From positions 128,001 to 192,000 of the forward strand of contig JBQLZK010000001.1 in assembly GCA_052168235.1 (NCBI GenBank): a stretch of DNA of 64,000 nucleotides, given 5' to 3'. The notes beneath the pieces are model-generated. The model was not told the origin of the DNA, made no database searches, and saw only the letters and a list, made by a program, of their open reading frames with translations. Position 1 is the stretch's first letter, and each line of letters starts with the position of its first letter. A program made the position numbers and the translations under genes. Below are positions 83-52,834 of the stretch, piece by piece. This DNA comes from Thainema sp. GTDB taxonomy: Bacteria > Cyanobacteriota > Cyanobacteriia > Phormidesmidales > Phormidesmidaceae.

Positions 83-2227
83 TTGAACAACCAGAGCTGC
101 AACGACGATCAAGAATACAGCGATTTCACTTCTCTCGCTAATGACGCTTCGCTGGGGCATTTTATCGTCTGTGGCTTGGGTAGTCTGGGGCAGCACTGTA
201 TTTTGAATTTGGATCGATTTGCCTCAGACGAGTTTGGCATTACGCTAGTCGGGGTTGATCAAGAACCTGCGGGTGATTGGGAGATTGATAACCTCTCCGA
301 TTTGCTGGCCCAGCCTCCCATCCGGGGAGATTGCCGTCGAGAGGATATCCTTAAGCAATCTGGCATTCACCACTGCCGCGCTATTTTGCTGGTGACGAGT
401 GATGAGAGTATTAATGTTGAAGCCGCGATCGCAGTTCGGCGACTGAATCCAACGGTGCAAATTGTCGTTCGATCATCTCGCGAAAATCTGAATCAACTAC
501 TCGAACGGCAGCTTGGTAACTTTGTAGCCCTGGATGCGACGAAGCTACCTGCGATTACCTTTGCCTTGGCTGGTTTGGGAGGTGAAATTCTAGGCATCTT
601 TAACAAAGGCAGCTACTGGTTTCGGGTTGTTCAGCAGCGAGTTGCTCCAACAGACTATCGCTTCGATAAATTTCCCATTCATCGGCTCCATCGCAAGCAT
701 CATCGGCTACTGGACTTCCAACCTGCTTACCCATACGATCTATCGCTGAGAAGGGCCACGACTGGATCATCTATTTTTCATCGCTGGCTGCCGGATATGT
801 CCGTTAATGCAGGTGATTGGGTTGCCTATGTTGAGCTGATGGAAAATAGCCCGAATTCAACGCCACAGGCACAACTGCGATCGCAGGGCATTTGGCAGCG
901 GATTCAGAGCAGACTGCAAGATCTGATTCAAGATGATTGGCGGCAGCGGTTGGCACGCTTTTGGCAGTGGGGCCGAGAAAAGCGAATTCAACGAATGTTG
1001 GTGTTTAGCACGTTAACCGCTGTTAGCCTGTGGGTGATTGGAACGATGCTGCTGAAGCTCAGTGTCTCTGGGCTCACCTGGCAAAAGGCCATGTCGCTTG
1101 GCGTCATCTTGTTACTGGGCGGTTATGGCGACGTATTCGGTGGTTTAGACGCCGACCCAATTCCCGGTTGGATTCAGTTCGTCTGCTTACTCATTACGTT
1201 AACCAGCCTTTTAGTGGTGCTGGGAATTCTGGGTTTGATCGCTGAACAGTTGCTGAGTTCTCGATTTGAGTTCTTGCAGCGCCGCCCACCCGTGCCGAAG
1301 TCAGATCACGTTGTGGTTGTTGGATTGGGACGCGTGGGGCAGCAGATCATTCAGTTTCTGCAAACGCTTAACCAGCCTCTGGTTGTGATTACCGAGCAAA
1401 TCCCCGCATCTGATTTGTTAAGCCGAGTACCCGTTTTTTCTGGCCCTATTCTGCGCGAACTCGCTAACGTGAATTTGGCTACAGCAAAAAGCGTGATCGC
1501 TGTGACCGATGACCAAATGCTGAATTTGGAAGTTGCGCTCACAGCCGTAGAAACAGCAGACCAGGTAAAACACCCGATTCACACCATCATCCGCACCTCT
1601 GATCAAAGCTTTAGCAACAACCTCGTGGCGCTGCTGCCCAATGCTAGAGCCTTCAGCGCCTATGCTCTGTCTGCCGAAGCGTTTGCAGGTGCTGCATTTG
1701 GTGAGGATATGCTGAGCCTGTTTCCCTTGAGTGGACAAACGATTCTGGTCGCTGAATATGAGGTAACCGAGGGCGATACGTTGGTGGGTAAGCTATTGGC
1801 TCAAGTAGCTTATGGATATGGGGTTGTGCCTGTTTACTATCTGCGATCGCAAACTATCACGGGCGAAGTGGCAGAGCTGATCATGCCGTCAGACGATTGG
1901 CGACTCCATGCTGGCGATCGAGTGGTGCTGCTGTCGTCCATCAATGGGCTGCGACGGATTGAGCGCGGCGAATTGACACCGCCCCGACGCTGGCAACTCA
2001 TCGTCAAACAGCCCCTAAATCGAGAGTTCACGCTAGAAGCAGGCAACACCCTAGCCAATATCTCAGGCTGCGATTTGGAAATAGCCAGAGCCTTTATGCA
2101 GCAGTTGCCGGGAGAAATGGAGCTTGAACTCTATGATTATCAAGCCCACCGTCTGCTGCAAGAGCTACGAAAGCAAATCCCCGTCAAGCTCATGCCACTT
2201 GAAATACCTCATGAATTGCCGACCTGA
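83..2227 (+). CDS. TrkA-N/RCK domain potassium channel family protein
   Basis: Two Rossmann RCK motifs (IVCGLGSLG, VVVGLGRVG) flank two TM helices with a pore-like LGGYGD; TrkA-C-like region follows. Confidence 0.8.
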   Translation: MNNQSCNDDQEYSDFTSLANDASLGHFIVCGLGSLGQHCILNLDRFASDEFGITLVGVDQEPAGDWEIDNLSDLLAQPPIRGDCRREDILKQSGIHHCRAILLVTSDESINVEAAIAVRRLNPTVQIVVRSSRENLNQLLERQLGNFVALDATKLPAITFALAGLGGEILGIFNKGSYWFRVVQQRVAPTDYRFDKFPIHRLHRKHHRLLDFQPAYPYDLSLRRATTGSSIFHRWLPDMSVNAGDWVAYVELMENSPNSTPQAQLRSQGIWQRIQSRLQDLIQDDWRQRLARFWQWGREKRIQRMLVFSTLTAVSLWVIGTMLLKLSVSGLTWQKAMSLGVILLLGGYGDVFGGLDADPIPGWIQFVCLLITLTSLLVVLGILGLIAEQLLSSRFEFLQRRPPVPKSDHVVVVGLGRVGQQIIQFLQTLNQPLVVITEQIPASDLLSRVPVFSGPILRELANVNLATAKSVIAVTDDQMLNLEVALTAVETADQVKHPIHTIIRTSDQSFSNNLVALLPNARAFSAYALSAEAFAGAAFGEDMLSLFPLSGQTILVAEYEVTEGDTLVGKLLAQVAYGYGVVPVYYLRSQTITGEVAELIMPSDDWRLHAGDRVVLLSSINGLRRIERGELTPPRRWQLIVKQPLNREFTLEAGNTLANISGCDLEIARAFMQQLPGEMELELYDYQAHRLLQELRKQIPVKLMPLEIPHELPT

Positions 2228-2276
2228 AATTCAGCTTCCTGCTTCCCGCTTGAAAAGCCTGATTAATAGCCGTTTC

Positions 2277-3386
2277 CTAAAATTCAGCTTCCTGCTTCAG
2301 CAGTTCTTCAATCGTCAGATCAAAGCGAGCCTCGCCCTCAAAGACGGTGCCCACTTTGCGGTTTTTCAAGTGCTCATGTGCGATCGCATGAGCCTCTTCC
2401 GGCAGCGCCGTGTATCCTACCACTGGAATCAGATAACGAGCGTTCGTCAGGTAATAATCTACAAATGCCTCTAGTTCAGGCTTTTGCTCCAGCGCATCGA
2501 CACTGACATAGATAAACAAAGGCCGGGTCAGCGGCTGGTACTCCCCACTGCTCACCGTTTCGTCTGATGGTGGCACTGGCCCATTGCCGTTGTCGATACT
2601 GAGCGCCTTCAAAGCCGTTTGGCTCTCTTCGTAGTAGGCATAGCCAAAATATCCCAGGCTGTTTGGATCGGTACGAACACCCCGCACCAATTCGGTATCG
2701 TCTTCGCTGGCGGTGTAATCGGTGCGGCTCGCTCCGGATTCACCCATAATGGCCTCAGTGAAGTAGTCAAACGTTCCCGAATCTTGATCTGCACCATAGA
2801 GGTTAATTGGCTCATCCGGCCAGTCTGGGCGAATCTGATTCCAGCGGCTAATCTGCCCTTCTGCTGCTGGTTCCCACAGCATCTTCAACTCATCAACGGT
2901 GATGTCCTCAGCCCAGTCGTTGTCGGGATGAACCGCAATGGTCAAGGCATCAAAGGCCACTGGCAACTCGATATATTCCACACCAGCATCCTTACAGGCA
3001 GCCATCTCATCTTTGGTAATCGGGCGAGATGCCCCGTTAATATCGGTTTCTCCCGCACAGAATTTGCGAAAGCCACCCGTCGTACCAGAGAACGCCACGT
3101 CGATTGAAGGAGCAGCCTCCGCCTTTTCAAACTGATATTCCTTCGCCACTTCATCCGAAATTGGATAGACCGTACTCGATCCATCAATTGCGATCGCAGT
3201 TGGTGATGATACCTCTGCCAATTCAGGCTGAGTAGATTCAGTTGATTCAATTGAAGCGGAACAGCCAACAGTTGTCAGCAATAAACTTAAGGCCATCACG
3301 CAGCGACGTTTCTGAAATATTGCCCATTGTGGAACCGATAATTGCGGCGTAGATGATTGGGGAGCTGGTGAAAGCATAGCCATCAT
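2277..3386 (-). CDS. pstS: PstS-family phosphate ABC transporter substrate-binding lipoprotein
   Basis: IDGSSTVYP, SGTTGGFRKFC, SGTFDYF and YQPLTRPLFIY motifs; lipobox-like TVGC. Confidence 0.88.
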   Translation of the reverse strand: MMAMLSPAPQSSTPQLSVPQWAIFQKRRCVMALSLLLTTVGCSASIESTESTQPELAEVSSPTAIAIDGSSTVYPISDEVAKEYQFEKAEAAPSIDVAFSGTTGGFRKFCAGETDINGASRPITKDEMAACKDAGVEYIELPVAFDALTIAVHPDNDWAEDITVDELKMLWEPAAEGQISRWNQIRPDWPDEPINLYGADQDSGTFDYFTEAIMGESGASRTDYTASEDDTELVRGVRTDPNSLGYFGYAYYEESQTALKALSIDNGNGPVPPSDETVSSGEYQPLTRPLFIYVSVDALEQKPELEAFVDYYLTNARYLIPVVGYTALPEEAHAIAHEHLKNRKVGTVFEGEARFDLTIEELLKQEAEF

Positions 3387-3495
3387 GCCTCCTGTGAAGA
3401 CACTATGTTTATCAGCAAACCAAAATTGTTTAAATTCTCAAGTCATGCAGAATACATCATGAAGCAACGACACGACATGAACTGCCATCCCTGTC

Positions 3496-3771
3496 TCACG
3501 CTTCATCAGCTTGAGACGATTCATTATCTGCAATTCCCAGTCCTTTCTTCGTGCGCTTGAGTTCTTTCCACGCCTGCTTAATCCCTTGGTACGCTTCACC
3601 CGCTGGAATTTTGCCACCCGTCTCTAAAGCACACAGATAACTAACCTGATGCGCAAACTCCTGCAGATTAATATTGAACGCCAACTGCTCAGGGCTGAAC
3701 TCACCGTAGTATTGGCTACGGGCTTGTAAGAACTCTTGTTTTCCAATCACCGGATGATTATCAGTATTCAT
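3496..3771 (-). CDS. Conserved cyanobacterial small protein (DUF7219-like)
   Basis: YYGEFSPEQLAFNINLQEFAHQVSYLCALETGGKI pattern recognised from conserved cyanobacterial hypotheticals. Confidence 0.7.
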   Translation of the reverse strand: MNTDNHPVIGKQEFLQARSQYYGEFSPEQLAFNINLQEFAHQVSYLCALETGGKIPAGEAYQGIKQAWKELKRTKKGLGIADNESSQADEA

Positions 3772-3972
3772 CGCTACATCACCTCAAACGAATATATTTA
3801 AATTAGCCTAAACTTTGACTGCTCTCTCTGCGACGGAAGAGAAGATTTACAACAGCCTCGTATAGTAAGGTTGCGAGCGGACTTCATCTGTTTCGCTAAA
3901 GAGAGTGTCAGCTCTTACTGATTTGGTTAGCTAGCCGTTTATGTTTAACGTAAATTTAAACTGTTATTCTGT

Positions 3973-44746: not shown

Positions 44747-47725
44747 TTACTTTGTCTCCATCCAGTTTTGCCCAGCATGAACTTCAACTCGCAGCGGTAC
44801 TTCTAGCTGCACCGCCGACTCCATTGCGGTCTGAATTTTAGGGCTGAGTTCGGCCCATTCATCGGGCGGAGCCTCAAACACCAGTTCATCATGCACCTGT
44901 AAGAGCAGACGAGTTTCATACGACTTTAGCAAATCTTGGATCTGCACCATCGCGATTTTGATGATGTCAGCGCTAGAACCTTGAATCGGCGCATTGGCCG
45001 CTGCTCGCAGCAGTCCGGCATCATAGCCACCGGGACGAATCGTTTGCAAGTCAATCTCATCTGGACTCTTACCCTGGAGCCGCTTTAGGCTACCGCTGGT
45101 GAAATTGAAATAGCGGCGACGACCTTTAATTGTTTCGACGTAGTTGTTTGCGATCGCATTTTTCTGCATTTGCTGCAAATAGCCGAATACCAACGGATAG
45201 CGTTCGTTAAAGCGGTCAATGAACATTTTGGCATCGGCCCGACTCACTCCGGCTTCACGGGCAAAGCGGGAAGCTCCCATGCCGTAAATGACGCCGAAGT
45301 TGATCGTTTTACCCAAGCGGCGCTCGTCCGGAGTAACGTCGTCTTTCTCGAACAGCAAGCGAGCCGTCAAGGCGTGAACATCGTCGTTGTTGCGGTACGT
45401 CTCAACCAAAACAGGCTCACCGCTCAGGTGGGCCAAAATCCGTAGCTCAATCTGAGAATAGTCGGCTGCAGCCAAAATCCAGCCCGGTTCCGGAATAAAC
45501 GCCGCCCGAATCTGGCGACTGAAGGCGGTGCGAATCGGAATGTTTTGCAGGTTGGGATTGGACGAAGACAGGCGGCCTGTGGTCGTAATCGCCTGATTGA
45601 AGTCGGTATGTACCCGTCCCGTTTTGGGATTGACTAGCTCCGGCAGCGCATCCACATAGGTCGATTTCAGTTTGGACAACGTGCGAAATTCCACCACCGC
45701 ATCCACGACTGGGTGATCGCCCTGCAGTTTCTCTAGCGTGGCGGCATCGGTAGAGTAGCCCGTCTTCATCTTGCGCGACTTGCGCTTATCCAGTCCCAGC
45801 TTGTCAAAGAACAATTCGCTCAACTGCTTGGGCGAACCGAGATTAAACGTCTCGCCAGCATCCTCATACGCCTGCTGCTCGATCTCTTGCAAGTTCTTTT
45901 CCAGTTGAACTGAAAGTTTACGCAAGTACTCTTGATCGATGCGAATGCCCGTATATTCCATGTCGGCCAGAACAGGCTCCAGCGGCAGCTCGATCTCATG
46001 CAGCAAGGCCGGAAACGCTTCGACCTGCTCCAGTTGCGCCTGCAAGAGGGGTACTAACCGATAAGTCAGATGGACATCCATGCCACAGTAGTTAGCCACC
46101 GCTGGGATACTGACATCGGCAATCGTTTGCTTTTTGGGGACGAGATCGGTGTAGCTCGTCACTTCTAACCCAAAATAGCGCAGCGCCATATCGGTGAGAT
46201 TATGGCTACTTTCGGGATTGATCACGTAGCTGGCCAGCATCGGGTCAAACACCACGCCCTTCAGGTCAACTCCCTGGCAGCGCAGCACCAGCCGATCAAA
46301 CTTAGCATTCTGAAACGCCTTGGGATAAGCAGGATCTTCTAAGAGCGATCGCAACCTCTCCAGCACCGTCTGCACGTCCAGAGATTTCCCGACAGTGTGA
46401 CCAACGGGAATATAGGCCATGTCCGCCGCTTCCTCACCCCAGCAGCAGCCGATGCCGACTAACTGAGCCTGCCAGGGGTCAAGCGCTGTCGTTTCCGTAT
46501 CCCAGGCCGTCGGGTGCTTCGGATCAGTGTGCTGCTTAAGGCGCTGAATCAGCTCGTCTAACTCGTCGGTTGTTCGAACAATCTGCGGCTTGATCGTGAC
46601 GTTTTCGTCAGGAGCAGCCTGAGCTTTGAGCGTATCTTCGAAGGTAAAGAACGAAATGTCGTCATCGTCAAAGAATGGAGATGGAGGTGCGATCGCGCTT
46701 TTTCCCTCAGCCCCACCACTGGTTTCTGTCGCCTCAACCTCACCACCAAAGGCGGTCTGAATTTTGCCAATCCGCTTAATAAAACTCTGAAACTCTAGGC
46801 GCTTAAACTCTTGGACAACCTTCGCTTCGTCAAAGCCCTCCAGCTTACACATCGTCAAGCTGACATCAATCGGTACGCCCAAGTGAATCTGCGCCATGTA
46901 CTGCGAGTGCATCGCATCGTCGTGCCCCTCTTCCAGCTTCTTGCGAGTCGCACCTTTAATTTGGTCAATCGACGCATAAATATTTTGCAGGGAGCCATAC
47001 TCGTCCAGCAGCTTGACCGCTGTTTTTTGCCCAATTCCTTTTACACCAGGAATATTATCTGAGGTGTCGCCACAGAGGGCCTTGTAATCCACCACCTGAT
47101 CGGGGCGAATGCCCAGCTTTTCCTGCACCTGCTGGGGGCCAAATTCCGTTACTCTGGCTCCAGCCCGATAGAGAGCGCTGCCCATATGCAGCACGGAAAT
47201 TCCCTGCTCTGGATCAATGAGCTGAAACATATCCTGGTCGCCGCTGAGGATTTTGACCCGATAGCCGTCCTGAGCGGCTTTACGCGCTGTTGTCCCCAGC
47301 ACGTCATCCGCTTCGTAGCCATCCAGCATCAGAATCGGCACCCGCATCAGCGTCAGCAGCGCTTGCAGGTTTTTGATATCTTCTCGAAAATCATCTGGCG
47401 CTTCTGGTCGATCTGCCTTGTATGTGACATCGACATCATGGCGAAATGTGGGGGCACTGGAGTCGAACGCTGCCGCCGCATAGTCTGGCCGCTCGGAATC
47501 CATCACGTCCATCAGCAGCGTTAAGAAGCCGTAGGTAGCACTAGTGGGAATGCCAGAAGAAGTTCGCAATCCACCATCCGGGCCACGAGAAAAGGCATAG
47601 TAGGCCCGGTAGGCCAGCGAATGGCCATCAACGAGGAGCAGCGTGGGTTTCTCAGTCGCTTTGGGTGTCGCGGTTTCAGGAGTTGAATCAGCCAAGATTA
47701 GATCGAACAGATGAGCAAACGACAT
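44747..47725 (-). CDS. polA: DNA polymerase I (start uncertain; ATG 47725 preferred)
   Basis: LLVDGHSLAYR 5'-3' exonuclease, DTET, TGRLSS, DYSQIELR, KTINFGVIYG and QVHDELV motifs. Confidence 0.97.
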   Translation of the reverse strand: MSFAHLFDLILADSTPETATPKATEKPTLLLVDGHSLAYRAYYAFSRGPDGGLRTSSGIPTSATYGFLTLLMDVMDSERPDYAAAAFDSSAPTFRHDVDVTYKADRPEAPDDFREDIKNLQALLTLMRVPILMLDGYEADDVLGTTARKAAQDGYRVKILSGDQDMFQLIDPEQGISVLHMGSALYRAGARVTEFGPQQVQEKLGIRPDQVVDYKALCGDTSDNIPGVKGIGQKTAVKLLDEYGSLQNIYASIDQIKGATRKKLEEGHDDAMHSQYMAQIHLGVPIDVSLTMCKLEGFDEAKVVQEFKRLEFQSFIKRIGKIQTAFGGEVEATETSGGAEGKSAIAPPSPFFDDDDISFFTFEDTLKAQAAPDENVTIKPQIVRTTDELDELIQRLKQHTDPKHPTAWDTETTALDPWQAQLVGIGCCWGEEAADMAYIPVGHTVGKSLDVQTVLERLRSLLEDPAYPKAFQNAKFDRLVLRCQGVDLKGVVFDPMLASYVINPESSHNLTDMALRYFGLEVTSYTDLVPKKQTIADVSIPAVANYCGMDVHLTYRLVPLLQAQLEQVEAFPALLHEIELPLEPVLADMEYTGIRIDQEYLRKLSVQLEKNLQEIEQQAYEDAGETFNLGSPKQLSELFFDKLGLDKRKSRKMKTGYSTDAATLEKLQGDHPVVDAVVEFRTLSKLKSTYVDALPELVNPKTGRVHTDFNQAITTTGRLSSSNPNLQNIPIRTAFSRQIRAAFIPEPGWILAAADYSQIELRILAHLSGEPVLVETYRNNDDVHALTARLLFEKDDVTPDERRLGKTINFGVIYGMGASRFAREAGVSRADAKMFIDRFNERYPLVFGYLQQMQKNAIANNYVETIKGRRRYFNFTSGSLKRLQGKSPDEIDLQTIRPGGYDAGLLRAAANAPIQGSSADIIKIAMVQIQDLLKSYETRLLLQVHDELVFEAPPDEWAELSPKIQTAMESAVQLEVPLRVEVHAGQNWMETK

Positions 47726-47802
47726 CTCATTGTAACGAGCAATTGGCGATGCGGATGATGATGCAGTGGCGAGGCAATTTATTGCCTCGGTTAAATAGGA
47801 TA

Positions 47803-47877
47803 TCAGCGCTGCACGAGGATGATCAGAATGAACACTGCGACGGCAATGGCAACATAGGGAAACCATTGGATTTGGCC
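47803..47877 (-). pseudogene. Relic copy of the 3' end of the NB-ARC-TPR gene
   Basis: Encodes GQIQWFPYVAIAVAVFILIILVQR*, 16/24 identical to the NLR C-terminus; preceded by in-frame stops. Confidence 0.75.
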
Positions 47878-47942: not shown

Positions 47943-48212
47943 TCATGGAAAGTAGCGGTAGAATTCGCGGCGGTGTAGCACTCTCATGACTTCTAACGTG
48001 TCGCCGTTAAGTTCAACTCCAACCCGATAATCACCGACGCGAATGCGATATCGGTTGGGATAGCCTATTAATGCTTTTACATTAGGCAGACTTTGGAGGG
48101 ACTGAGCTGCTGGCAATGTTGTAAAGGCAAGCTCAAAGATTCGCTGATAAGCGGATGAGCCTTTGAGTTTTTTCAGATCTTTCAAAAAGAGCTTCCGATA
48201 CTCAATCTTCAA
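47943..48212 (-). CDS. RelE/ParE-family type II toxin
   Basis: TTG start overlaps the antitoxin stop; FLKDLKKL, YRIRVGDYRVG and HRREFYRYFP. Confidence 0.88.
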   Translation of the reverse strand: MKIEYRKLFLKDLKKLKGSSAYQRIFELAFTTLPAAQSLQSLPNVKALIGYPNRYRIRVGDYRVGVELNGDTLEVMRVLHRREFYRYFP

Positions 48213-48442
48213 TCGGCTTCCTCCTCTGCCAAAAACTGAAGCGCATCTTCGCGGCTGAGCAGGGGCGATGTTTTGGCTTCGTCCATCGCTTTGTTTAAGC
48301 AGTAGTCTGCTAAATTTTCGGCGAGATTTTCGAGTGTTTCGTTGCCTTGGGGCATCAGTCGCTGCCAAAGCTCAATGGGAATGACAACGGCCTTGGGATT
48401 GCCGTCAGCGTCGGTGAGATAGTTGATGGCAGGGTTGGTCAT
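48209..48442 (-). CDS. Putative antitoxin
   Basis: 77-aa acidic protein (YLTD..G...AVVIP; LNKAMDEA) upstream of and overlapping the toxin. Confidence 0.78.
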   Translation of the reverse strand: MTNPAINYLTDADGNPKAVVIPIELWQRLMPQGNETLENLAENLADYCLNKAMDEAKTSPLLSREDALQFLAEEEAD

Positions 48443-48467: not shown

Positions 48468-51185
48468 CTAACGCTGCAAGATGATAATCAGAACACAGAC
48501 AATAATGGCGATGGCAATATAGGGGAGCCATTGGATCTGACCTTGGCGGGAATTGGACTTTGAGGAATAGGAAGAGTTGGGAAGGGATTTTTCCCACCAA
48601 TCAGGCCTTGAATCCTCTTTTTCCAGAAGAGTAGGCATTTTTCGAGGTTGCATCACAATAGTCTGATTGAGATTGTAAATCACTCGTTCACAATCCTTAA
48701 CTTCGTGGTCAAGTTGCAACTCTTCGTAAATTGCTTTTGCTGCTTCGAGATCTTGCTTCGCTGCCCATAGCTCGTCAATTCTGGCGTAAGCTAAAGCTCG
48801 GTTAAATAGATTGGCTGCTTGGCCCCTGGGTGTATCAATCCGTTTCGCAATTTTTAGAGATTGCCCATAGAATTCAATTGCTTTAACATGTTGACCTAAC
48901 GAACTATAAGCAAGGCCAAGATTACAAAGATTAGCAGCTTGCCCATGAAGATCACCAATCTTCCGATTAATTTCTAAGGCTTGTTTATGTAGGTTCACTG
49001 CTTTGTCATATTGGTGCAACGAATGATACGTACTGCCGAGACTACCAAGAGAAACAGCTTGACCATCAAGGTCACCAATCATCTGCGATATCTCTAAAGT
49101 CTGCTGATGCATTTCAATTGCTTTGTCATGCTGACCCAAGGAATTATAAGCAAAGCCAAGATCTCCAAGATTGGCTACTTTGCCTGTGAGATAACCAATT
49201 TCTTGATTAATTTCTAGGGCCTGCTTGTGCAGTGCAATTGCTTTGGTACATTTACCTAAGGAATAGTATGCAGAGCCAAGGTTGCCTAGATTTGTAGCTT
49301 GACCTTTGCGATGGCCGATCTTCTCCATTATTTCTAGGGCTTGCTCGTGCAGTTTAATTGCTTTATCGTATTGATCTAACAAGCGATAGCTTTGACCAAG
49401 ATTGCAAAGATTATGGGCTTGACCTTCAGCATGGCCAATTTCCTGCACGATTTCTAAAGCTTGCTCATGTAGCTCAACTGATCGAGCATATTCGCTTAAC
49501 TCCTTATAGACTATGCCGAGATTGCCTAGATTGGTAGCTTCCCCCCTACGATCTCCAACCTCTCGATGGATCTTTATAGCTTGCTCAAATAGCTCAATTG
49601 CTTTGTCATACTGGCTCAATGAGACATAAGCCACTCCAAGATTGTCGAAAGCAACAGCTTGGCTGTGAAGATCTCCAAGCTCCTGCTCAATTTCCAGAGC
49701 TTGCTTCTGTAGCTCAATTGATCTGGTGTACTGGCTTAATAAACGGTAGGCAAGGCCAAGGTTACCAAGAGCAGCGGCAAATTTCCGCCTTTTCTCCAGT
49801 GTTTTCGGTGGATAATTTTTCCAGGCTGTCGTCAGCCGTTCATAGGTATCTGCCCAAATGCGATAGTAACCTAGCAAGTCAAACCATTTAGTACATTCTG
49901 AGATCGCATCATAGGCAGCTTCATATTTGTCTAGCTCACAGTGATGGTGAAATACAGCTAAATAGTCATCTAAAAACTTCTCAATATCGTTTTGCTCTGG
50001 TTTTAGAGGTAAATAGTCAGTAAAGAACTCAACCGCCTTCTGATGTGCTCCAACCTCCAATTGTCGCTCTTGCAATGTCTTCTCGACAAACTGCCGCATC
50101 AGCGGATGCAATGTCCAGCGATCTTGTCGCTTCAGCAAAAAGCCCTGCATTTCTAATAGTTCCAGATCAGCCTCTGCCACCTGCGGCTGCATTGCCTGTG
50201 CCCGTTCCACATCAAACGGATTCTGATAAACCGACACCTCCAGCAGTGCCGTCTGCAACGTCTCCGATAACTGCTGCAACAAAAGCTGAAAAATCTCCTC
50301 AACCTTCGCTTCCGGATCACCCAAATTGTTCTCAAACAGCCTCTCAAAAAAGCTTAAATCCGTTTCTTTGAGTTGTCCCGCTGCCGTCTGATTCAGCCAA
50401 CTCGCCGCCAAATTCAACAACAACGGATGCCCATCTGCCAACGTCGAAAGCTGCTCTAAATTGACTTCTTCCGATGCAGAAATTTCCTGCTTCTGCAAAA
50501 ACGCCGCCCCTTCCTGCGGTGTAAACCCCGGCAAAACGTAACGAACCGAATCTTCAGCAACAAACCGATTCCGCGTCGTCACCAGAATCATGCTTTTCCG
50601 TCCCCGCTGTTGCCACTGCTCCAAAAATGCCTCAAACAATGGCCGATCTGCCGACTGCTCAATCTCCTCAAGCTGATCCATCACCAGCAGACAGCGGCGT
50701 TCACTCAGCCGATGAATTGTCTGAGTAATTAGCTCCTCGTCTGGAACTGACTCATCCGGAACTAAAAAGCCAATTTCTTGATGTACCCAGCGACCAAACG
50801 TACTGAAAGATGGCTGTTTTTGAAAATTGATCCACAGCGCATAGTCAAACCGCGCTTGAGTAACTTCATACGCCCAACACGCCAACAGCGACTTACCAAA
50901 ACCACCTGCTGCCACCACTTCAGTCAGCAGAACACGATCCGACTGTATCCGCTCCATCAAATTAGCTTGTGGCTGTGTCCGGTCAACCCATCTGTCCGGC
51001 TCACGCCTGGGTAGAATGGGATCAATTTCTGTAACCAGCACCGTGCGCTGAGACTCAATGCGATCGCCAAAATTTGCGGTTCCATGAAACTCACCAAATC
51101 CGTAGTTTCGGGAATTACCATGTCCTTCGATATCAATGTTGACCTTGTTAGGATCAAATTTCGGCGTTTTGTCTTGCCCAGTCAT
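48468..51185 (-). CDS. NLR-like protein: N-terminal amyloid-type motif, NB-ARC-like NTPase, TPR array, C-terminal TM helix
   Basis: AAGGFGKS Walker A, LLVMD Walker B, ILVTTR, GHPLLL, LHPLMR; about 9-10 40-aa TPR repeats; hydrophobic tail. Confidence 0.88.
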   Translation of the reverse strand: MTGQDKTPKFDPNKVNIDIEGHGNSRNYGFGEFHGTANFGDRIESQRTVLVTEIDPILPRREPDRWVDRTQPQANLMERIQSDRVLLTEVVAAGGFGKSLLACWAYEVTQARFDYALWINFQKQPSFSTFGRWVHQEIGFLVPDESVPDEELITQTIHRLSERRCLLVMDQLEEIEQSADRPLFEAFLEQWQQRGRKSMILVTTRNRFVAEDSVRYVLPGFTPQEGAAFLQKQEISASEEVNLEQLSTLADGHPLLLNLAASWLNQTAAGQLKETDLSFFERLFENNLGDPEAKVEEIFQLLLQQLSETLQTALLEVSVYQNPFDVERAQAMQPQVAEADLELLEMQGFLLKRQDRWTLHPLMRQFVEKTLQERQLEVGAHQKAVEFFTDYLPLKPEQNDIEKFLDDYLAVFHHHCELDKYEAAYDAISECTKWFDLLGYYRIWADTYERLTTAWKNYPPKTLEKRRKFAAALGNLGLAYRLLSQYTRSIELQKQALEIEQELGDLHSQAVAFDNLGVAYVSLSQYDKAIELFEQAIKIHREVGDRRGEATNLGNLGIVYKELSEYARSVELHEQALEIVQEIGHAEGQAHNLCNLGQSYRLLDQYDKAIKLHEQALEIMEKIGHRKGQATNLGNLGSAYYSLGKCTKAIALHKQALEINQEIGYLTGKVANLGDLGFAYNSLGQHDKAIEMHQQTLEISQMIGDLDGQAVSLGSLGSTYHSLHQYDKAVNLHKQALEINRKIGDLHGQAANLCNLGLAYSSLGQHVKAIEFYGQSLKIAKRIDTPRGQAANLFNRALAYARIDELWAAKQDLEAAKAIYEELQLDHEVKDCERVIYNLNQTIVMQPRKMPTLLEKEDSRPDWWEKSLPNSSYSSKSNSRQGQIQWLPYIAIAIIVCVLIIILQR

Positions 51186-51631
51186 GACTTTGAATCACCA
51201 AAGTTTGCTGTCCCGTGAAATTCACCAAATCCATAATTTCGGGAATTATCGTGTCCCTCAATGTCAACGTTGATTTCCTTATGGACTTGGTTCTGCTGAC
51301 CAATGTTAATAATCTGTTGCGCCATCTGCTGCACATCCTCAGCAAACTGCTGATTCTCTGGATCTCTTAATTCATAAGCTAGACAAATCTCCAGTTCTTC
51401 TAGTGCAGCCTCAGACTTTTCTTGCTCTACTCGGGTGATGGCCTTTTCCATCCGCTTATTTCCAGTAAAGTGCTGCTTGATCCGTTTCCACAACGCCTCA
51501 ATCTGGCTACCCGCCGTCTTCAACATGGCTGGGGTCGTTATTTCTGCCGCTTTGCCTGCTGCTGCCTCAACAAACTTACTTGCCGCTATGGCAGCGATCC
51601 CCGCTGCCGTTAACGTGACTGGATCAGTCAT
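51182..51631 (-). CDS. Bell-like helical effector with C-terminal amyloid-type motif
   Basis: MTDPVTLTAAGIAAIA hydrophobic N-helix, LW..I...F.G and FA..VQQ.A pattern; C-terminal motif repeated in the next gene; ATGA overlap. Confidence 0.75.
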   Translation of the reverse strand: MTDPVTLTAAGIAAIAASKFVEAAAGKAAEITTPAMLKTAGSQIEALWKRIKQHFTGNKRMEKAITRVEQEKSEAALEELEICLAYELRDPENQQFAEDVQQMAQQIINIGQQNQVHKEINVDIEGHDNSRNYGFGEFHGTANFGDSKS

Positions 51632-51813: not shown

Positions 51814-52053
51814 ATGGCTGAAAACATCGTGAAAGTAGACATCTCATTTCAAGCCTTACTCACAGCCGTTCTATCTCTGGAACGCGCTGAGAAGCAGAAG
51901 CTTTGGGAATTCCTGGAAACAGATTTATTTCCAGACGAGGAGGATTCACCCGAAGATCTGGCTGAAATTGAAGCTGCTCGCGCCGACTATACAGCAGGTG
52001 ACTACATCACGTTTGATCAATACGCAGCAGAGCGAGCTAGCCGTTACGAATGA
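51814..52053 (+). CDS. Putative antitoxin
   Basis: 79-aa acidic protein (EIEAARADYTAGDYITFD) with ATGA overlap to a RelE-like gene. Confidence 0.7.
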   Translation: MAENIVKVDISFQALLTAVLSLERAEKQKLWEFLETDLFPDEEDSPEDLAEIEAARADYTAGDYITFDQYAAERASRYE

Positions 52054-52289
52054 CGTACACAATCATTACGCCTAAAGTTGTTCGAAAACAGCTAGATGAC
52101 TTGCCCGATGACGTTTATGAACGTATTGCTCCTAAGATCCAGCAGCTTGCAGAACATCCTCGCCCAGACGGGGTTACAAAGCTGAAAGGAACCGATCGCG
52201 AATATTGGGTTCGTTGTGAAATTGATGACAAGGAAAAAGTGATCTTGCTCTTATAGTGCAAGCACTAAAGAGATATCTACCGGAAGTAG
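52050..52289 (+). pseudogene. Decayed RelE/ParE toxin
   Basis: PRPDGVTKLKG present, but the RIRxGDY segment is missing and the tail reads LLL*CKH*RDIYRK*. Confidence 0.75.
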
Positions 52290-52345: not shown

Positions 52346-52834
52346 CTAAATATCTTTACTTTGCACAAAATAGGAGCCAATACTGAAGCTGGTATCGCTT
52401 TCCTCAAGCTGCTTTAAGACTGAACGGGTAATTAGCTTCTCTTTTTCGACCAGCACTTGACCTGTGATTGGGTGCAGCAAATCTTGCTCTGCCCGCCGTC
52501 CAATCAGCGCCTCAATATCCTTCAGCGAATTAATATACATACCGGGCGGTAGCTCCACCACCACGCCTTCGCCCTGCACCCGTGCCTGACAGGCCAAGCG
52601 CGAATTGGGCTTGCAGGTGGTAATCACTTCTAACGTACGCTGTTCCCGGCGGTTAATTGGGCTGAGCGAGCCCATGCCCTCTTTCACATAGATATGGCAG
52701 GTGGCGCACATACCCCGCCCACCACACTCTTTCAAAACGTCCAGTTCTTCATCCAGCAGCACAGAGAGCAGGTTGCCGTCAGTTGCGATCGCGGTTTCCT
52801 GAGCAATTGGTTCTAGTCGAACAATTTTAACCAT
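52346..52834 (-). CDS. 2Fe-2S ferredoxin-domain protein
   Basis: CGGRGMCATC...RLACQ motif with a C-terminal extension. Confidence 0.88.
   Translation of the reverse strand: MVKIVRLEPIAQETAIATDGNLLSVLLDEELDVLKECGGRGMCATCHIYVKEGMGSLSPINRREQRTLEVITTCKPNSRLACQARVQGEGVVVELPPGMYINSLKDIEALIGRRAEQDLLHPITGQVLVEKEKLITRSVLKQLEESDTSFSIGSYFVQSKDI

Follow-up and report, generated by a model that had tools for sequence, protein, structure and literature searches.

Matched 27-residue tags in a probable two-gene Bell/NLR module of the cyanobacterium Thainema sp.

The closest described counterparts of the locus examined here are the Bell/NLR gene pairs of filamentous cyanobacteria and actinobacteria. Our locus comes from a 64,000-nucleotide stretch of the genome of Thainema sp. 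(Cyanobacteriota, Phormidesmidaceae; GenBank assembly GCA_052168235.1, contig JBQLZK010000001.1, positions 128,001 to 192,000), hereafter called the window. It consists of two adjoining genes, one for a small effector-like protein and one for an NLR-type receptor, each carrying a copy of the same 27-residue motif, which we call the tag. Dyrka et al. (2020; bioRxiv 10.1101/2020.01.06.895854) described 346 Bell/NLR pairs with the motifs BASS1-10 of bacterial amyloid signalling (BASS). In these pairs a short (about 120-140 amino acids, aa) helical Bell protein, whose N-terminal helix is hydrophobic and whose second or third residue is acidic, has a motif of ~25 residues in common with an NB-ARC/TPR partner. 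The motifs are rich in G, N, Q, V and I and poor in K, P and L, and the two genes are collinear in 91% of pairs and overlapping in 42%. For BASS motifs other than ours, that work showed fibrils, prion behaviour in Podospora and conversion of the motif of the Bell side by that of the NLR side.

Two further systems provide points of reference. In the fungal HET-S/NWD2 system (Daskalov et al. 2015; PMC4518210), the HRAM motifs of effector and NLR diverge in concert into discrete classes, which these authors proposed to represent independent, non-cross-seeding pathways. In Escherichia coli, the Bab/Agp system (BASS11) provides abortive infection against phage T5 by means of a Bell-related effector that bears an amyloid motif at its C terminus; the protein encoded next to it has the same motif at its N terminus and activates the effector (Ibarlosa et al. 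2024; bioRxiv 10.1101/2024.11.07.622273). The same authors consider that the function of Bell/NLR pairs in multicellular bacteria is still unknown. The window locus is probably a two-gene Bell/NLR module of the BASS kind.

Codon-level match of the two tags

Both copies of the tag are encoded on the minus strand, in two collinear genes that overlap by the bases ATGA: an effector gene (149 aa) followed by an NLR-type receptor gene (905 aa). Aligned over 27 codons, they have 24 identical residues in register and 66 identical bases out of 81. The 15 codons that differ comprise 12 synonymous changes, all at the third position, and three replacements (V/I, I/V and G/D), exactly the count on which the original prediction was based. 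Differences at codon positions 1, 2 and 3 thus number 2, 1 and 12, a strong excess at third positions (binomial P 2.9e-4 for at least 12 of 15). The formal dN/dS analysis that the original prediction had called for, here by the Nei-Gojobori method, gave 12 synonymous differences (Sd) over 17.0 sites (pS 0.706, corrected dS about 2.1, i.e. saturated) and 3 non-synonymous differences (Nd) over 64.0 sites (dN 0.048). The resulting dN/dS ratio (omega) is 0.023, and the contrast between the two classes of sites is highly significant (12/17.0 vs 3/64.0; Fisher P 3e-8). As a means of dating the tag region against the split from its paralogue (see below), the pS of the tag pair (0.71) is not significantly higher than the locus-wide value of 0.55 (P 0.15); the region may have diverged in place by stepwise co-evolution, been homogenized by an old conversion or been exchanged as a block.

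The age of the duplication can be judged from the silent sites. Different codons encode 12 of the 24 identical residues, against 13.7 +/- 2.3 expected if both codons were drawn independently according to the codon usage of 1649 long open reading frames (ORFs) of the same genome. Since the silent differences are at the level of independent draws, no DNA-level memory is left between the two copies. Their DNA likeness is that of two independent back-translations of one peptide, in line with the earlier claim that the duplication is old. The match between the window tags is upheld by purifying selection at the protein level, with silent sites saturated.

The likeness is confined to the tags. It ends at their borders, where the flanking residues are HKE and PNK on one side and SKS (followed by the stop) and RIES on the other. 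Searches with either tag against the 7.5-Mb genome (tblastn, E < 1e-4) retrieved only the respective partner (E about 1e-13) and both tags of a single paralogous pair (3e-5 and 5e-8), with no second tag copy in the effector. In composition, the 27 residues include 5-6 G, 4 N and 3 F, and not a single K, P or L. A complex prediction for three copies of effector residues 105-149 together with NLR residues 1-50, run without controls, scored 0.02, a value that speaks neither for nor against the proposed fold.

The case that the receptor might be translated from a start downstream of its motif had been raised from the outset. In fact, the ATG that overlaps the effector stop is the first start of the NLR frame, the next in-frame start being a GTG at codon 49; moreover, because omega is low, the NLR-side copy of the tag must be translated.

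Concerted divergence from a paralogous module

The same genome contains a second Bell-like/NB-ARC-TPR pair with the same layout and ATGA overlap (contig C17, 96818-99873, minus strand; 819-3874 in our locus L001). Its tags, FNTTARDQSRVNNFGEFNANTVDFGD and FNTDARDQSRVNNFGEFNANTVNFGD, are identical at 24 of 26 residues and differ by 9 synonymous and 3 non-synonymous bases (omega 0.053, Fisher P 2e-5). In this pair, the 9 silent differences are fewer than the 14.2 +/- 2.3 expected under independent codon choice (P 0.019).

Comparison of the two modules showed that their parts have diverged to very different extents. The helical effector domains are 77.7% identical in amino acids (dN 0.125), and three windows of 100 codons over or just past the NB-ARC domain are 76-90% identical (dN 0.05-0.13). 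Identity is only 38.5% (dN 0.50) for the effector-side tags and 54% (dN 0.34) for the receptor-side tags, and 46-56% in windows over the TPR region. In a four-way alignment of the tags (28 columns), 10 columns are invariant, 12 differ between modules but match within each module, and 6 follow neither pattern. The 12 concerted columns include one deletion common to both window copies. Smith-Waterman scores follow the same partition, with 145 and 132 for cognate tags vs 54 and 43 across modules. These data show that both copies diverged in concert relative to the paralogous module of the same genome and, together with the omega of 0.02, they support the earlier proposal that selection keeps the two peptides matched.

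On the DNA, this divergence is sharply delimited. Nucleotide identity to the C17 locus falls to a trough of 40-58% (45-column windows centred 51269 to 51092). Upstream of the trough, the effector gene is 53-96% identical to its C17 counterpart, reaching 91-96% just before the tag; downstream of it, the NLR gene is 71-100% identical, with 100% around 50660-50705. Effector tail, junction and receptor head adjoin one another on the DNA and behave as a unit, a diverged cassette with conserved sequence on either side. New to the present work are this tag-junction-tag divergence island, the co-divergence across modules and the greater, if uneven, likeness of cognate tags in 12 related pairs (see below). 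Of particular value is the occurrence in one genome of two modules with conserved engines (Bell, NB-ARC) and co-diverged tags, which makes templating specificity (cognate vs non-cognate) testable with four short peptides. The tag-pair omega, combined with concerted insertions and deletions, offers a simple sequence criterion to tell functional tag pairs from recent duplications.

The fully identical stretch corresponds to the Walker B region of the NLR (about 50660-50705, minus strand), where at least one 45-base window shows 100% identity between the paralogues, against ~80-90% around it. This pattern suggests that the paralogues recently underwent gene conversion here and that the tag cassette was left untouched. 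Tags of the C17 type also occur in other samples, in an orthologous receptor (P0030) and in an effector (P0003). One DNA contig at ~84% identity continues into a C17-type tag, and the other contigs are fragments outside the tag cassette.

A third Bell-like protein of this genome (151 aa; contig C19, 86825-87280, minus strand; L002, 3326-3781) has a G/N-rich tail, for which we found no partner tag in the draft genome (best other match E 0.63). The frame continues past its TGA stop into an NB-ARC/TPR reading frame that lacks a tag and in which no start codon occurs for 19 codons. The 83 bases from this stop do not fold better than shuffled sequences (z 0.05). L002 could be a split Bell-NLR fusion or a case of stop-codon readthrough.

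The wider family and the two gene products

An alignment scan of species-representative genomes yielded 40 loci, all but one from genomes titled as cyanobacteria (among them Leptolyngbya, Phormidesmis, Nostoc, Calothrix and Pseudanabaena), and a scan of metagenomes added a further 31. The exception, L017 (contig CALRKB020000034.1), is a Bell/NLR pair of cyanobacterial type in a metagenome-assembled genome (MAG) labelled Rhizobium sp., a label that probably reflects a binning or labelling error. The tail motifs vary within this Bell clade: besides the window type (consensus about FNIDARDxARVNAVGExNAxTVNFGD), we found NYGRDQINIENIQGNPKIGG, NRDNAKGFQVQANRIDRIGDDY and NQGRDQFIVNNPTGDLKLGG. Where a downstream NLR is present, its motif is the same as that of the effector in most loci. 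The tail NYGRDQINIExIQGNPKIGG, found in the same clade in Nostoc, Calothrix, Pseudanabaena and others, likewise recurs at the start of the neighbouring NLR (L014, L016-L018, L020-L027, L029, L034, L036-L038, L042, L054-L056, L061, L065, L066 and L070-L073).

After extracting effector tails and the heads of the frames that follow them from all 74 loci, we picked by eye 12 usable pairs with the window motif. We left out L003, L044, L045, L046 and L049, in which the contig ends before the NLR (the tails of L003, L044 and L045 equal that of L043, from which L046 differs by one residue), L047, which lies on the same contig as L005, L019, which has a family-type tail and no long downstream ORF, and all loci with other tail motifs. 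We also left out L013 (4001-4477), where a family-type tail is followed 496 bases later by an NLR frame devoid of a tag (score 17); the head of this receptor may have decayed or been rearranged.

Within the 12 pairs, the mean Smith-Waterman score was 84 for cognate vs 53 for non-cognate combinations, and the cognate total was reached by only 1 of 100000 permutations. The original prediction had proposed to compare identity within and between pairs; in a common alignment, it was 0.55 for cognate vs 0.39 for non-cognate combinations (reached by 9 of 100000 permutations), as would be expected if partners are kept alike. Without the two pairs of the Thainema genome itself, the values were 0.49 vs 0.41 (744 of 100000). 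The effect was uneven, with strong matching in only part of the family: the cognate partner scored highest in both directions in five of the 12 pairs (window, C17, L006, L010 and L012). Both partners had an identical gap pattern in 8 of the 12 pairs, and L006 and L012 carry private insertions present in both of their partners. The 4-base start/stop overlap was found in 9 pairs and an ATG upstream of the tag in all 12.

A profile built from 11 receptor heads matched 20 representatives (E <= 0.001) among 1.84 billion proteins, which makes this a rare family. The matches are heads of receptors, tails of effectors and, in two cases, small proteins in which predicted membrane helices replace the Bell domain. 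These two, P0041 (101 aa) and P0042 (114 aa), have hydrophobic N-terminal halves resembling membrane helices and a C-terminal tag of the window family (e.g. SFDIDASDNARVNAIDGDVNATIVNFGD), and they may represent an alternative effector type for this tag family. The tag variant of the window was absent among the 20 matches, and a word-indexed search of longer proteins retrieved only the two proteins of the window itself. We also considered that phages might encode decoys of the tag and rejected this idea, since neither a consensus-type tail (P0038) nor the head of the window NLR matched any of 50,697 phage records in tblastn searches (E <= 1). In IMG/VR, the 313 pattern matches obtained with the Bell clade profile contained no relative, and no viral contig encoded a member of the clade.

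The N terminus of the effector, MTDPVTLTAAGIAAIAASKF, is a hydrophobic helix whose third residue is acidic. An AlphaFold2 (AF2) model based on 27 relatives (mean predicted local distance difference test score, pLDDT, of 73) is all-helical over residues 9-123. The tail (residues 114-149, tag included), with pLDDT under 50, is unstructured in the monomer. The effector matched no family in Pfam, NCBIfam or PADLOC; these databases hold no Bell profile, and we approached Bell homology via the tail motif of its relatives. Twenty-eight relatives were found at E <= 0.001 among 74 candidates from a collection of 5.8 billion clusters, all unnamed or annotated as 'hypothetical' except for the weakest match ('OmpA-like'); one comes from a Leptolyngbya MAG. 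The effector domain is related (tblastn E 1e-13 to 1e-19, calculated relative to the candidates only) to proteins of Nostoc, Calothrix and Pseudanabaena with NYGRDQINIE tails. Among the Bell-side BASS sets of PMC8086366, this motif is found as cluster 'C20', which gives an indirect link to Bell.

In the receptor, the NB-ARC domain was recognized by PF00931 (E 8.4e-10; 38.8 bits for a cut-off of 23.5) and includes the motifs GGFGKS (aa 94-99), LLVMD (aa 166-170) and GHPL (aa 252-255). The TPR region matched TPR_12 (E 6e-64), TPR_1, TPR_10 and others in Pfam, as well as NCBIfam TPR models (aa 446-709). No GreA/B or PIN family occurred among the best 25 of 31 Pfam families, and the Pfam search gave no match to the HeLo domain. 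The receptor ends in a 19-residue segment (aa 884-902) with a mean Kyte-Doolittle hydropathy of 2.67. A similar hydrophobic end, in which WLPY precedes ~18 hydrophobic residues, is found in the NLRs of the window, C17, L004, L006, L009, L043 and L012 (truncated there, as the contig ends). With such ends, these NLRs look like C-tail-anchored membrane proteins, with aa 884-902 as a possible anchor. This conserved tail suggests that the receptors are located at a membrane which, if so, bears on the site of effector activation.

The features of the locus are listed in Table 1. The last two codons of the effector-side tag contain GGTGAT (51199-51194), located 8 bases 5' of the NLR ATG, a sequence that resembles a Shine-Dalgarno site and may serve as such for the NLR.

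Table 1. Features of the candidate Bell/NLR module, with coordinates in the window.
Feature	Position	Strand	Basis
Bell-like effector gene, 149 aa (helical domain and C-terminal tag)	51182..51631	-	ORF
Globular, helical part of the effector (approx. aa 1-113)	51293..51631	-	AF2 helices; C17 paralogue; relatives
Effector-side tag INVDIEGHDNSRNYGFGEFHGTANFGD, aa 120-146, followed by 3 residues and stop	51194..51274	-	Codon comparison
ATGA overlap of effector stop and NLR start	51182..51185	-	ORFs, junction sequence
Receptor-side tag VNIDIEGHGNSRNYGFGEFHGTANFGD, aa 15-41 of the NLR	51063..51143	-	Codon comparison, reading-frame starts
Tag-junction-tag cassette, divergence island vs paralogous locus	51092..51284	-	Sliding nucleotide identity to C17
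NLR-type receptor gene, 905 aa (tag, NB-ARC, TPR, hydrophobic tail)	48468..51185	-	ORF, Pfam
NB-ARC NTPase domain, aa 82-266	50388..50942	-	Pfam PF00931
TPR repeat region, about aa 446-825, presumed sensor	48711..49850	-	Pfam, NCBIfam
C-terminal hydrophobic tail IQWLPYIAIAIIVCVLIII, aa 884-902, possible membrane anchor	48480..48536	-	Kyte-Doolittle

The pair is bordered by toxin-antitoxin-like genes. On one side there is an ORF for a ParE-family toxin (47943-48368, minus strand; PF05016, E 2.9e-9) and on the other, a pair of short ORFs that overlap each other (79 and 68 aa; 51814-52256, plus strand), the 79-aa one with a weak match to the VapB15 antitoxin (E 0.0019). Housekeeping genes are found farther out, namely polA (44747-47866) and a gene for a 2Fe-2S ferredoxin (52346-52834).

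Proposed mechanism, alternatives and known systems

By analogy with the published systems, from which we borrow amyloid formation, templating, membrane attack and biological role, the window module would most likely operate as follows. The receptor would sense a cue via its TPR repeats and oligomerize via its NTPase domain, gathering the N-terminal 27-residue tags of several molecules into a stacked cross-beta fold. This fold would template the matching tag at the C terminus of the effector, and the conversion of the tail would free the helical domain to attack the membrane with its N-terminal hydrophobic helix. The outcome would be cell death, probably as an abortive defence. The composition of the tag fits the published bias and is compatible with the amyloid or beta-arch fold inferred in the original prediction. 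Since in-register stacking needs rungs of equal sequence and length, the target of selection would be the match between the peptides rather than the DNA. The selective regime and the concerted change seen here are what such a mechanism leads one to expect.

It is conceivable, and we propose it only tentatively, that the cassette of ~190-210 bp evolves as one unit and gives a signalling channel its address. The two paralogous modules, with near-identical engines but diverged TPR sensors and two old, mutually diverged cassettes, would then amount to two insulated amyloid channels in one cell. If true, selection against cross-seeding or against tag-mimicking inhibitors would keep the cassettes apart or have them exchanged as a whole. 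The window cassette would then be a private address, seen nowhere else so far.

Several observations weigh against the reading of the locus as a BASS module. The cognate receptor is the best-scoring one for only 6 of the 12 effector tags, and those of L004 and L007 rank 8th and 7th; with such uneven matching, near-consensus tags may cross-react or strict identity may not be required. The 12 pairs are not independent either: the effector tail of L008 equals that of L010, and L004 is closely related to L007. Nor is it self-evident why two paralogous effectors of one type would have to be insulated from each other. As for the effector, its assignment to Bell rests on the architecture and on homology to proteins with a motif of the published BASS sets, and structural comparisons did not add to it: a Foldseek search of the AF2 model against the Protein Data Bank (PDB) gave 0 matches at E <= 0.001, and the best hit of VIA-align among 48161 chains (Z 5.3) corresponds to helical-bundle noise. 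The plant resistosome chain 6j5t_G (Z 4.0, rank 27) falls within that noise, and a profile search of PDB sequences reached E 0.18 at best.

The tag might also work without amyloid, either as another type of homotypic recognition element (a beta-strand addition or heterodimerization peptide) or as a signal for a third factor (e.g. a protease, chaperone or membrane-targeting machine) that recognizes it on both proteins. We consider this unlikely. A tag read by a third factor would stay conserved across paralogues, but here it co-diverges module by module. Moreover, the 27-residue length, the richness in G and N, the lack of P, K and L and the Bell/NLR context match those of motifs with experimentally supported amyloid-prion behaviour, and the indels shared within pairs fit in-register stacking. 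This alternative draws its strength from the fact that protein-level constraint, concerted change and terminal position only require that the two peptides be recognized as alike. The tail left unstructured in the AF2 monomer is also consistent with it, and co-localization at the membrane through the conserved hydrophobic tail of the NLR could be part of the logic.

A second alternative, which we find quite improbable, is that the copies, as direct repeats 131 bp apart, owe their likeness to recurrent gene conversion, with no part played by selection for matching. Close direct repeats are indeed a favourable substrate for conversion, and concerted changes, including the common deletion, are its expected product. 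The deficit of silent differences in the C17 pair points in the same direction, and the stretches of up to 100% identity between the paralogues (around 50660-50705) show that conversion or recombination acts in this gene family. However, conversion copies silent sites too, and in the window these are randomized (12 differences vs 13.7 expected) while only 3 of 64 replacement sites differ; hence, purifying selection has kept the match for the whole time of silent saturation. An ancient conversion followed by selection is compatible with the amyloid-templating explanation, and conversion may have helped to create matched variants, more recently in the C17 pair. Finally, despite the G/N-rich tag and the GTG at codon 49 just past it, we reject the possibility that the likeness reflects low-complexity composition or chance, or that the NLR-side copy is an untranslated leader, given the 24 of 27 residues identical in register (E about 1e-13 against the whole genome), an omega of 0.02 that is impossible with one copy untranslated, and an ATG that comes first in the frame, overlaps the upstream stop and precedes the tag in 12 of 12 pairs.

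We therefore retain a BASS-like module as the favoured reading and compare it with the systems introduced above. Bab/Agp differs from it in its partner protein (TPR-GreA/B-PIN instead of an NB-ARC/TPR NLR), in its motif and in its location in prophage defence hotspots, whereas the window pair has polA on one side and a ferredoxin gene on the other, beyond its toxin-antitoxin-like flanks. As in HET-S/NWD2, the NLR gene adjoins a gene for an effector of presumed pore-forming type, both with the same motif, and two modules show concerted divergence. Unlike the fungal HeLo effector, with its two 21-residue pseudo-repeats (r1 and r2) forming a beta-solenoid, the window module has a Bell-like domain and a single tag on each protein, and its sequence does not resemble HRAM. 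It would work like the HET-S/NWD2 system but is not a member of it.

The resemblance to the pairs of Dyrka et al. extends to most of their features. Our comparison of motifs was by 5-mers and against part of the supplementary BASS sequence sets of PMC8086366, where RVNAI, NFGEF, SRVNN and VNFGD have 0 occurrences and RVNAV, VNAVG and TVNFG appear only in unrelated contexts (C06, C09 and C02); on this basis, we do not assign the window motif family to any of BASS1-10, among whose pairs it may nevertheless be listed. The receptors described here also differ by their hydrophobic tail, a feature not mentioned in the parts of that report considered here. Like those pairs, the window locus combines a small helical effector that has a hydrophobic N-terminal helix and an acidic residue 3 with an NB-ARC/TPR receptor. 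A tag identical at 24 of 27 residues, G/N-rich and without K, P or L, lies at the C terminus of the former and the N terminus of the latter, the genes are collinear with a 4-base overlap, and the relatives are cyanobacterial. The window pair is, in this respect, a further example of the published BASS layout.

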